From positions 1 to 13,189 of the IMG/VR virus record IMGVR_UViG_3300035498_001035: DNA of 13,189 bases. One strand, written 5' to 3'. Of this stretch, positions 6,471 to 8,992 are shown in pieces. This DNA comes from a virus. A program made the translations under genes and the position numbers. The first letter of the stretch is position 1; each line of letters begins with the position of its first letter. Below the pieces are notes generated by a model. That model worked only from the letters and a program-made list of their open reading frames with translations. It did no database searches and was not told where the DNA came from.

Positions 6471-8273
6471 TTAGTTCTCTGAAGATTTTAAATTTTTTAA
6501 TATATCTTGAAAAGAGGTTCCACGAATTAAAGTATTAATGGTATCAGGAATACTTTCTCCCTTTGCAATAGAATAAGGAGATACTGCTTTACCTAAACTT
6601 TCCATAATATCTACATTGCTCTTTGCATTCATAGCTGCTACAAGGTCAGGCGATATAGATTTCATAATATTAGATACTGTTTCCGCATAAGCTGCTTGTC
6701 TTGCTTTTTCAATTTCTGCGAGCTGCTTTTTCTTTTCAATCTCAGCCTCATCATCTTTCTTTTTACGCTCTAACTGTGCAGATTGAATATCATTAAGAAT
6801 AGCTTGCATATCAGATTCAGCTTTTTTAGCAGCCTCCGCCTCTGTTCTTTCTTTTAATGCTAAGCTAGCTTTAGCGTCCATTTCTTTAGTTTCACGTTCA
6901 ATTTTTAACTCAAGAGATTTAATAGCATTTTCATGTTGAAGCGCAGTTTCTTTACGATTATATTCAGCTAATTGAGTAGCCATTTGCATTTTCTTTGCAG
7001 CATCTGATAATTCTAGTGCTTGTGTAATCATTTCCTTTTGATGCTCATTTAAAATTTCAGCAACATGATGTTCTATATTAACACTTAAAACTTCTACATC
7101 GTGCACAAGCATACCATTTTCTGGGAAGAAACGACCTACTCTTTGGTTTTCACTATGTTCTGTATTGAGGTCTAACGCAACCTTCCGCACAATATCTGCG
7201 GTATTTGCATAGAAATCTTCAATGCTATATTGCTTAGCCTCTCTTTTAAGCAAACTGCGTTCACGGTCACACATATATTTTACATAATTTTCTACATTAA
7301 ACCACTTATCTTTATAAGATTCAAGAAAATCTACACAATAAGATACTTTAATCTCAACATCAACAAAATCTTTAGTTTGAACATTAATAAGGTCAGAAAT
7401 TTTATTATTCTCTACTCTTAAATATGCAGTTTCTAATAAATTGTCTGTTGTTTTAGGGCGTCCAGTAGATAAAGTCATAGACTCTAAAGTTTCATCATAT
7501 TTTAGTAATCTGGTTGTAGGTCCAACGATGACTTCTCTTTCACCTGTCTTAGACACAACATTAATAGCATACCCAGTCCATACTCCAACAGCAACAGCAC
7601 CGTCATATTTTGTATCAAGAGTGATAGTTCTAGGTTTAGTATAAGAAGTTCCTCTACTAATATTAGCATTAGCTTCAAAAATTGCAAGTGTAGCTTCTTG
7701 ATTAGAAGTTGCATACATGCTATTTAACATATCTGTTGTCATGTCTGCTTTGCCTCTTTGAGCCATTTTTTGAACAACTTTCTCAGATAAAGTCTTATTA
7801 TATTCTAATACTTCATTATTATTAGGATAAATTAAATTACATTCTTTTTCAGTCAGTTTACGCTTTACCACTACTTCTGTACGTGGGTCTGGTAAATACA
7901 TTCTAGGTCCTTCTATTGTTTGAATTTTACCATTTAAACGATTAAGAATATAACGACCTTCTCCTTCAGGGATTGCAATAGCATGGTGCATATATTTTCC
8001 ATCATATTGAATCATTGCATGTTCAGGACGAGGATAATAAATCATTTGGTCATTTCCTGTAATAAATAACTCTTCTCCAATAGGATGATGTTTTATAATA
8101 TTGCCTTCTTTATCTTTATCATCGTATTCAGCAATTACCTTTACATAAATTCCGCTAATAGGAGATAATTCTAATGCTCTAAAAATATTTCCGCCAGATG
8201 GAGTTTCTACAAAAGTTTCAGTTGGCTCAGGAAATACTACTGCTGGACCATGAACATATCTCTTTCCCCATCT
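6471..8273 (-). CDS. Major vault protein (MVP) homolog, C-terminal 600 codons: vault repeats, shoulder, cap-helix and cap-ring. The frame is open upstream of the annotated Met at 8045.
   Basis: The track ORF 6471-8045 stays open in the same frame up to 8273 (hand-translated RWGKRYVHGPAVVFPEPTETFVETPSGGNIFRALELSPISGIYVKVIAEYDDKDKEGNIIKHHPIGEELFITGNDQMIYYPRP...). Block-by-block similarity to eukaryotic MVP as recalled from memory (unverified): MTLSTGRPK (human TVLSLSAGRPK); DFVDVEIKVSYCVDF ([25 protein letters not shown]); FNVENYVKYMCDRERSLLKREAKQYSIEDFYANTADIVRKVALD ([44 protein letters not shown]); FFPENGMLVHDVEVLSVN (VFPQNGLVVSSVDVQSVE); an Ala/Glu/Lys coiled coil (cap-helix); MESLGKAVSPYSIAKGESIPDTINTL (LGLKSTLITDGSTPINLF, cap-ring). 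The vault-repeat motif GKRYVHGPAVVFPEPTETFVE matches human [22 protein letters not shown]. Confidence 0.8.
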   Translation of the reverse strand, partial: RWGKRYVHGPAVVFPEPTETFVETPSGGNIFRALELSPISGIYVKVIAEYDDKDKEGNIIKHHPIGEELFITGNDQMIYYPRPEHAMIQYDGKYMHHAIAIPEGEGRYILNRLNGKIQTIEGPRMYLPDPRTEVVVKRKLTEKECNLIYPNNNEVLEYNKTLSEKVVQKMAQRGKADMTTDMLNSMYATSNQEATLAIFEANANISRGTSYTKPRTITLDTKYDGAVAVGVWTGYAINVVSKTGEREVIVGPTTRLLKYDETLESMTLSTGRPKTTDNLLETAYLRVENNKISDLINVQTKDFVDVEIKVSYCVDFLESYKDKWFNVENYVKYMCDRERSLLKREAKQYSIEDFYANTADIVRKVALDLNTEHSENQRVGRFFPENGMLVHDVEVLSVNIEHHVAEILNEHQKEMITQALELSDAAKKMQMATQLAEYNRKETALQHENAIKSLELKIERETKEMDAKASLALKERTEAEAAKKAESDMQAILNDIQSAQLERKKKDDEAEIEKKKQLAEIEKARQAAYAETVSNIMKSISPDLVAAMNAKSNVDIMESLGKAVSPYSIAKGESIPDTINTLIRGTSFQDILKNLKSSEN

Positions 8274-8992
8274 TCATCTTTTAAAATAGCATACTCAAGA
8301 CGCTCAAGAGTAACAGCATCACGAATATAATTATTTCCATTATATTCATCTTTCTCTCCAATTGCAAGCACTTCTATACCTGTAGGTGGCATGTAGAAAG
8401 AAACTTCAGTACCTTTAATCACTAACAGTTGCCCTGCATGATATGTTTTACTTTTACTTGTTTCAACTTCTTTGCCCTCAACATTAACAACTGTTGCGGA
8501 AGCCATATTTTTCTCGGCGGCATCTGCATCATATACCCTTGCCAATAAATATTGATTTGAACGAAGTCGATGTCCTTGTATAACTTTTGCCATTTGACCA
8601 GGGAACAAAGAAAATGAACAAGGACCTGCAATATTTACCTTGCGTCCAATTAACAATTCAGGACTATTTACTGCTTTTGCCGCATCTGGATGAGAGCCAT
8701 CATGACTTGGATTCTTTAATACTACATACCAACCCTCTGGGGCTGATGTAAAAAGCTGACGTGCTTTTCCAAAATCAGTAGTTTCTTCAAAGCGTTTTGT
8801 CTTAGAATTAAATATTACTAAAGATTCCTGTGCGGAAATTGCCATAGTTATAGGTCCAGTATATGTTTTAATAGCTCCATTGGTTTGACTCTGCAAGAAA
8901 CAAAATTCATTTGTTGAAAGAACTAAATCACGTTGTCTACTCATGCCTCCTCCATTATAATTTTCGTTATTGTCATCATATAATCTTCCCAT
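8237..8992 (-). CDS. Major vault protein homolog, N-terminal 251 aa (first vault repeats), ending at a TAG created by a frameshift relative to the downstream MVP frame.
   Basis: ATG at 8992 with a strong RBS AAGGAGAAAAT. DLVLSTNEFCFLQSQTNGAIKTYTGPITMAISAQESLV parallels the human MVP N-terminus [38 protein letters not shown]. Further repeat-like GP/..Y.P..G blocks follow. The ORF ends ...KDEDGERDMFMVQQ* while the -1 frame continues as MVP. Confidence 0.75.
   Translation of the reverse strand: MGRLYDDNNENYNGGGMSRQRDLVLSTNEFCFLQSQTNGAIKTYTGPITMAISAQESLVIFNSKTKRFEETTDFGKARQLFTSAPEGWYVVLKNPSHDGSHPDAAKAVNSPELLIGRKVNIAGPCSFSLFPGQMAKVIQGHRLRSNQYLLARVYDADAAEKNMASATVVNVEGKEVETSKSKTYHAGQLLVIKGTEVSFYMPPTGIEVLAIGEKDEYNGNNYIRDAVTLERLEYAILKDEDGERDMFMVQQ
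8240..8276 (-). pseudogene. Frameshift site splitting the MVP homolog: a 1-nt length difference, most likely in the G4A3 tract at 8263-8269.
   Basis: The upstream frame (codon phase of 8992) and downstream frame (phase of 8045) differ by -1. The downstream frame is closed by TGA at 8276..8274 and the upstream frame by TAG at 8239..8237, so the switch must occur within 8240-8273. The only homopolymer there is minus-strand GGGGAAAG (plus 8262-8269). The MVP-repeat alignment places the junction at ...KDEDG(E)|KRYVHGP... Confidence 0.6.

Follow-up and report, generated by a model that had tools for sequence, protein, structure and literature searches.

The sequence analysed here is a metagenomic contig of 13,189 bp, deposited in IMG/VR as virus record IMGVR_UViG_3300035498_001035 and examined in its entirety (the window). 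Its minus strand carries a gene for a major vault protein (MVP) homologue, which is divided into two overlapping open reading frames (ORFs). The second frame is -1 relative to the first, and a single frame specifying 840 amino acids (aa) is obtained if one A is put back into a run of three located in the overlap. The features of the locus are as follows.

6471..8992, minus strand: complete MVP locus, 840 aa if one A is restored in the run 8263-8265; assigned from the ORF of two close relatives (L001 and L002), the repaired frame of 2523 nucleotides (nt), Pfam, a profile search against PDB, and Foldseek.
8992..8237, minus strand: upstream fragment ORF of 251 aa, made up of native residues 1-243, eight out-of-frame residues (RDMFMVQQ) and the stop codon TAG.
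6471..8273, minus strand: downstream -1 frame of 600 codons, containing native residues 244-840 and extending from the rest of the repeats through shoulder domain and cap helix to the C-terminus.
8240..8273, minus strand: overlap of 34 nt in which both frames are open, the only place for a frame-restoring event; free of X XXY YYZ heptamers in the 0 frame.
8266..8269, minus strand: G4 run adjoining the lesion, of equal length in broken and intact alleles.
8263..8265, minus strand: lesion site, A3 in the window (TTT when read on the plus strand) and A4 in the nearest relatives, as defined by a three-way DNA alignment, the blastn gap list and the table of alleles and haplotypes.
8043..8045, minus strand: first ATG of the downstream frame, corresponding to native Met317, at which gene callers begin a product of 524 aa.

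Translation of the minus strand showed that the upstream ORF ends with ...KDEDGERDMFMVQQ (in a longer reading of the tail, ...LKDEDGERDMFMVQQ) at the stop codon TAG 8239..8237. The downstream frame is preceded by TGA at 8276..8274, is open from 8273, starts with RWGKRYVHGPAVVFPEPTETFVE... and stops at 6473..6471. Between them lies a tract consisting of G4 (8269..8266), A3 (8265..8263) and G (8262). The end of the first ORF, the opening of the -1 frame and the position of the tract had been given in an original prediction made from the letters alone, and all three were reproduced. A second, compensating indel restoring the frame was considered and ruled out, as the gene alignment contains a single gap and the 0 frame stops at 8237. 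Both fragments have entered databases: the 251-aa product was named 'major vault protein' by the Joint Genome Institute (JGI), and the 524-aa product is listed in a protein collection. The junction peptide ...DEDGEK|RYVHGPAVVFPEPTETFVETPSGGNIFR can be obtained from the full-length product alone.

Two sequences from IMG/VR, L001 and L002, share 98.5% identity with the window along 10.9 kb, and each contains an uninterrupted MVP ORF of 840 aa. In the three-way alignment, the sole local difference is GGGGAAAAG in these relatives versus GGGGAAAG in the window. Since the sequence with GGGGAAAAG encodes the intact protein, the missing base is one A of the run 8263-8265. When it is put back, the region reads GAT GGG GAA AAG AGA TAT (...DGEKRY...) within an open frame of 2523 nt. 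The junction had been predicted to lie inside the G4A3 tract, and exactly there the nearest relatives have one additional A. It had also been proposed that one missing G or A would restore an ORF of about 845 aa; a single base is indeed sufficient, but it is an A and not a G, and the length is 840 aa.

The gene is unbroken in 48 of 49 relatives from IMG/VR and in all 12 relatives found on GTDB contigs, and it is split at the position of the window in none of these 61. The best 120 database homologues are all between 818 and 858 aa in size. From these comparisons, the ancestral state is one ORF. A two-ORF arrangement with a conserved overlap, which according to the original prediction would speak for a functional design, was looked for among the relatives and does not occur there. 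The break is located between two β-strands, 233-238 and 244-248, where the best-conserved motif of the family begins; both strands are modelled with a predicted local distance difference test (pLDDT) score above 90. Residues G242, G249 and P255 are invariant over 107 sequences down to 37% identity. While the peptide DGEKRY is conserved, its codons vary among relatives (GGG, GGC, GGA or GGT; GAA or GAG; AAG or AAA), and the G4A4 tract is therefore an accident of the window's own clade.

One further damaged gene was encountered. In L055 (IMGVR_UViG_3300017585_000072, 2478-2505), a relative with 66% identity, MVP is broken by a deletion of about 50 nt, which removes IPEGEGRYILNRLTGEI and shifts the frame. 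Situated elsewhere in the gene, this lesion accounts for the one exception among the 49 IMG/VR relatives and shows that a phage MVP has been disrupted independently for a second time.

The assignment to MVP was examined at the level of sequence and structure. The downstream part matched Pfam families PF11978 MVP_shoulder (E = 1.9e-22, 79.9 bits, cut-off 25) and PF17795 Vault_3 (5.9e-07, 30.0 bits, cut-off 28.8). The 251-aa fragment on its own gave no Pfam match, and no PHROGs family was obtained for either fragment. As a single sequence, the repaired protein detected rat, human and rabbit MVP in PDB with E = 1.3e-12 in a colinear alignment, query residues 334-803 corresponding to rat residues 333-805. 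With a family profile of 107 sequences, rat and human MVP in PDB were found at 8e-45, the match running from the last repeat through the shoulder into the cap helix. The stretch following the break had been described as a textbook vault repeat. No other motif of the prokaryotic and phage family is conserved so strongly, but the alignment of this stretch to a rat MVP repeat is weak (independent E value 0.018).

An AlphaFold model of the intact allele was built on the family alignment with 50%-cluster representatives added, and reached a mean pLDDT of 83.5; an alignment of 14 close homologues alone yielded 46. In the model, residues 20-400 form an all-β repeat region with pLDDT above 90. A helical insert at about 380-460, including a stretch of low confidence (pLDDT below 50), is followed by more β repeats and the shoulder. 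The cap helix is one unbroken helix from 642 to 778, aligned to approximately 647-802 of rat MVP. In Foldseek searches, vault structures ranked first with E values of about 1e-32 over the full length. Crystal structures of the murine MVP repeats R1-R7 (3GNF and 3GF5) were matched with E = 1.8e-14 and a template modelling (TM) score of 0.51, and SPFH proteins such as flotillin, prohibitin and stomatin were detected at about 1e-6. Thus, an SPFH-like shoulder, a β-rich N-terminal repeat array and a long cap helix are all present in the repaired protein. In the sister strain and in 60 of the 61 relatives these domains are found on one polypeptide, which is not the case in the window, where the break follows residue 243. 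The 251-aa fragment is to be regarded as MVP solely through its colinearity with full-length homologues and its modelled fold.

A short homopolymer is a place at which sequencing or assembly errors are to be considered, and the original prediction had listed such an error as one of three readings. The true genome would then have A4 and an intact gene. In favour of an error are the location of the lesion at a homopolymer junction and the 1.5 kb around it, which are otherwise the same as in the intact alleles. The distribution of the two alleles speaks against it. According to exact-protein look-ups, on which all allele counts rest, the 251-aa product is encoded on five further contigs, L003-L007, which are 99.6-100% identical to the window and were derived from JGI metagenomes 3300035495, 3300035497 and 3300035499 and from Logan assemblies of the Sequence Read Archive runs SRR11792166 and SRR11792608. 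Two pipelines, JGI and Logan, thus arrived at the A3 allele in at least six independently assembled contigs. The exact intact product of 840 aa was found on nine contigs from other samples or runs. Among contigs reaching 20 diagnostic single nucleotide polymorphisms (SNPs) more than 1 kb away, linkage was perfect: A3 occurred with the haplotype of the window in four of four cases, and A4 with the other haplotype in six of six.

Locally, the two strains share the same sequence over about 1.5 kb, and a context-dependent error should therefore hit both of them. The A4 strain is free of it: nine contigs with the same local sequence came out as A4, so that an error would have to depend on the strain and not on the context. 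In addition, apart from the missing A, no indel in the blastn gap list breaks a frame anywhere in the 10.9 kb aligned, although the window contains 49 homopolymers of 6 to 8 nt (25, 18 and 6 runs of 6, 7 and 8 nt, respectively). The remaining indels fall within intergenic DNA or at its margin, or constitute a +1/-1 pair at the 3' end of ORF 2289-2777. This pair, at 2290 (+1) and 2305 (-1) relative to L001 and L002, is compensating over 15 nt, and its effect is limited to the final few codons and the stop region of that ORF. Apart from one small ORF (68 versus 69 aa), the other genes are of equal length in A3 and A4 contigs. Further searches were negative. The A3 37-mer had no match among the viral contigs scanned, in which IMG/VR is represented by the A4 strain only, and neither a variable-gap pattern nor a shared exact 28-mer, scanned for separately, had one in a metagenome contig collection that evidently does not contain these samples. 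Taken together, recurrence in independent assemblies and linkage to distant strain-specific SNPs make an error very improbable, and they support what had been the second reading of the original prediction, a recent inactivating deletion.

The age of the deletion can be judged from the alleles themselves. Codons 1-582 of the intact and the broken allele are identical apart from the missing A. All 19 differing codons, 13 synonymous and six non-synonymous without any stop, are found among codons 583-830; these differences would predate the lesion or be unrelated to it. No variation was detected inside the MVP gene of the A3 contigs. Because of this invariance and the identity over codons 1-582, the deletion appears to be very recent, and the downstream frame has not decayed. 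The divergence between window and L001 is strongly mosaic, with no substitution in 7500-8999 and 26 in 6000-6499, which suggests recent recombination between strains within the MVP gene.

Another possibility was functional recoding. A ribosomal -1 shift on GGG GAA AGA, or addition of an A by RNA polymerase, would restore the frame at a set efficiency and produce a fixed ratio of short to full-length MVP. The overlap is short (34 nt) and holds the G4A3 tract, and by our own reading of the sequence a tRNA-Glu in the P site could move its pairing from GAA to GGA, at the cost of one G-U pair. The sequence GGGAAAG also resembles the slip site of the lambda tail assembly chaperone G/GT, G GGA AAG, but the register is wrong here. 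No X XXY YYZ heptamer is present in the 0 frame of the overlap (GAU GGG GAA AGA GAU AUG UUC AUG GUC CAG CAG UAG). The 103 nt downstream have a minimum free energy of -22.4 kcal/mol compared to a mean of -18.1 for shuffled sequences (z = -1.35; 18 of 200 shuffles fold as well), which is not significant for pseudoknot-free folding. Accordingly, neither a heptamer nor a downstream stimulatory structure was found. AGA, the codon that follows, is used more often than any other Arg codon (68 of 124), so that no hungry-codon pause is expected. Transcriptional slippage is supported by runs of 7-9 nt, and A3 and G4 are far shorter. Phase-variable runs, for which about 7 nt or more and variation in length are likewise typical, are not seen either: the runs are G4 and A3 or A4, and the two length states are each fixed in one haplotype. 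Moreover, the two-ORF layout is confined to one strain and absent at this site from the 61 relatives, in which the nucleotides of the tract are not conserved and the Gly, Glu and Lys codons vary synonymously. Slippage had been ranked least likely in the original prediction. The layout occurs in no relative, the tract is not conserved, and a canonical heptamer or stimulatory structure is missing; all this agrees with that ranking, and we regard recoding as the least probable of all explanations.

Consequently, a genuine, very recent and lineage-specific deletion of one A, truncating MVP after residue 243, is considered highly probable. In this process, an A4 run would have lost one A, converting GGG GAA AAG to GGG GAA AG. 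Translation would depart from the native frame after Glu243, add eight wrong residues and end at TAG 8239..8237. The 251-aa product would comprise the first N-terminal vault repeats only. It is most probably non-functional, since it is devoid of the shoulder and cap-helix domains, which hold eukaryotic vault shells together, and MVP function would thereby be lost. The 597 native codons downstream would represent a fresh, undecayed remnant, which at best might be expressed as the 524-aa fragment from Met317, the sole start codon on offer downstream. Such a product would miss residues 244-316 and begin inside a repeat.

Could both fragments still be useful? The deletion would be real in this case, but one or both of the 251-aa repeat fragment and the 524-aa fragment, in which the final repeats precede shoulder and cap helix, could keep a function, for instance in oligomerisation via the cap helix. 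No stop or additional indel interrupts the downstream frame, both products are predicted by gene callers, and the ATG at 8045 is preceded by AGGAA with a spacer of 8 nt. In favour of this possibility it can also be counted that lateral assembly of eukaryotic MVP is driven by the cap helix (10.1101/2023.11.10.566534). On the other hand, residues 244-316 are absent from both fragments, and both new ends are inside folded repeats with pLDDT above 90. The AGGAA is a by-product of coding for the conserved Thr-Gly-Asn and is present in the intact genes too; a split MVP was not seen at this site in the 61 relatives; and the lack of decay is equally well explained by a very recent deletion. Retention of two functional polypeptides therefore appears unlikely. 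Even less likely, in our judgement, is that the A3 lineage was kept for a new mix of products, consisting of an N-terminal 'waist' fragment, the shoulder and cap-helix fragment from Met317 and perhaps traces of full-length protein made by imperfect -1 re-pairing of tRNA-Glu on GGG-GAA-A. If this were true, nature would have provided a split-vault variant from which the parts of prokaryotic or phage MVP required for assembly or function could be learned.

Truncation by a recent deletion also has a consequence for the role of the protein. As several metagenomes have the mutant as their assembled consensus, the data suggest that MVP is dispensable or accessory for the phage, which would still be able to propagate after losing it. 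The independent lesion in L055 and a patchy linkage to Thg1 genes would fit with an accessory protein, although they give no more than a faint hint. Several points weigh against a simple loss of MVP. Within the samples, the broken allele could be accompanied by an intact one at minority level. The A3 samples bear consecutive IMG identifiers and are probably from one study, so that the replicates are independent libraries and assemblies but not necessarily independent populations. Since the downstream frame has not decayed, purifying selection may still act on it. Some C-terminal or full-length product may possibly arise by way of the AGGAA in front of Met317 and the imperfect re-pairing of tRNA-Glu from GAA to GGA. 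Finally, MVP was found within 6 kb in four of 80 Thg1-bearing relatives, but this count covers loci of 6 kb on each side, many of them on incomplete contigs, and is a weak argument for dispensability.

Judged from its relatives, the source of the window appears to be an uncultured tailed phage of about 140 kb belonging to a low G+C, gut or rumen-type group; a literature search for the sample and run accessions was negative. The nearest relative is located on an IMG/VR contig of 139.6 kb. More distant relatives are on contigs of 130-190 kb and in metagenome-assembled genome (MAG) bins, labelled Bacilli, Erysipelotrichaceae or Clostridium, that originate from rabbit, sheep, pig and rumen samples. 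One MVP homologue with 51% identity is contained in an archaeal MAG (CACYVR010000001.1, 138,782 bp, labelled uncultured Methanobrevibacter sp. RUG12316). This contig is probably a mis-binned phage contig, because its size matches the phage genomes of the group.

In the window, MVP is surrounded by genes of RNA-repair or tRNA type (4895-5968 and 9072-13024), specifying a Thg1-like tRNA-His guanylyltransferase, YqeY, a nucleotidyltransferase, an AAA_33/PNK-like kinase and two phosphoesterases (Metallophos and a NinI-like phosphatase). Eukaryotic vaults are ribonucleoprotein particles. The association of MVP with RNA-repair genes may be of interest, but it is not conserved (four of 80 Thg1 loci). 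Further neighbouring genes encode an Amidase_2/SH3_3 endolysin and an HNH homing endonuclease. The latter ORF (1305-2135, minus strand, phrog_559 at 5e-32) is inside a region, 177-2241, that could not be aligned to the 98.5% identical relatives; in L001, about 1.08 kb (12750-13831) are present instead. The region looks like a strain-specific insertion or replacement involving a mobile endonuclease. It includes about 1.1 kb (184-1304) without an ORF of at least 60 aa on either strand, while the contig is otherwise densely coding. No Rfam match even at E values up to 1, no tRNA and no notable repeats were detected in 184-1304, and Rfam and tRNA scans of the whole window were empty. A scan for promoters and terminators around MVP yielded 22 promoter-like sites, with 14.5 expected, and no terminators, which is uninformative in such AT-rich DNA.

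Comparison with known systems places the gene in a family already described. Like the eukaryotic MVPs that build the rat, human and rabbit shells (PDB 4V60, 7PKZ and 9Z4W), the repaired protein shows a colinear domain order; it differs by a sequence identity of only about 16% and by the helical insert at about 380-460, and its assembly into a vault is only a possibility. Two viral MVPs have been reported from Caudoviricetes sp. ctOa11 and ct2Ri15 of the human gut (Santos et al., bioRxiv 2023, 10.1101/2023.11.10.566534). These are about 810-840 aa in size and have N-terminal repeats, shoulder and cap helix as well, and they also originate from uncultured tailed phages of gut metagenomes linked to Firmicutes hosts. 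Their genes are intact, in contrast to that of the window, which is broken by a 1-nt deletion. More than 6000 proteins were matched in the present searches, and the family comprises at least 1417 clusters at 50% identity (E up to 0.001). MVP-like proteins abound on phage-like contigs of about 130-190 kb as well as in MAG bins of gut and rumen origin. Among INPHARED phage records, three distant matches only were detected, all unannotated, with 42% amino acid identity and in huge phages of 462-735 kb. The phage MVP family is thus not new, but it is far larger than the 2023 report suggests.

Regarding the break itself, programmed -1 sites of phages are found, for example, at G GGA AAG in lambda G/GT, and a further site of this kind is A AAA AAG in dnaX. 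As at these sites, two frames of the window overlap over a short distance that includes a G/A-rich tract, and the downstream frame is -1 relative to the upstream one. The window differs in that the heptamer is out of register, a stimulatory structure is missing, and neither layout nor nucleotides are conserved. The resemblance to ordinary frameshift pseudogenes is complete: one base is lost from a short mononucleotide run, a stop follows a few codons on, the downstream frame is intact, and one lineage only is affected. There is no difference of substance, and what is unusual is the gene that was hit. As lesions of this type are common, annotators should merge the fragments into one disrupted MVP gene and not list two 'major vault proteins'. 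The modest value of the finding is that a natural MVP knock-out strain and a 98.5% identical sister with an intact gene (A3 versus A4) constitute a pair for studying phage vault proteins.

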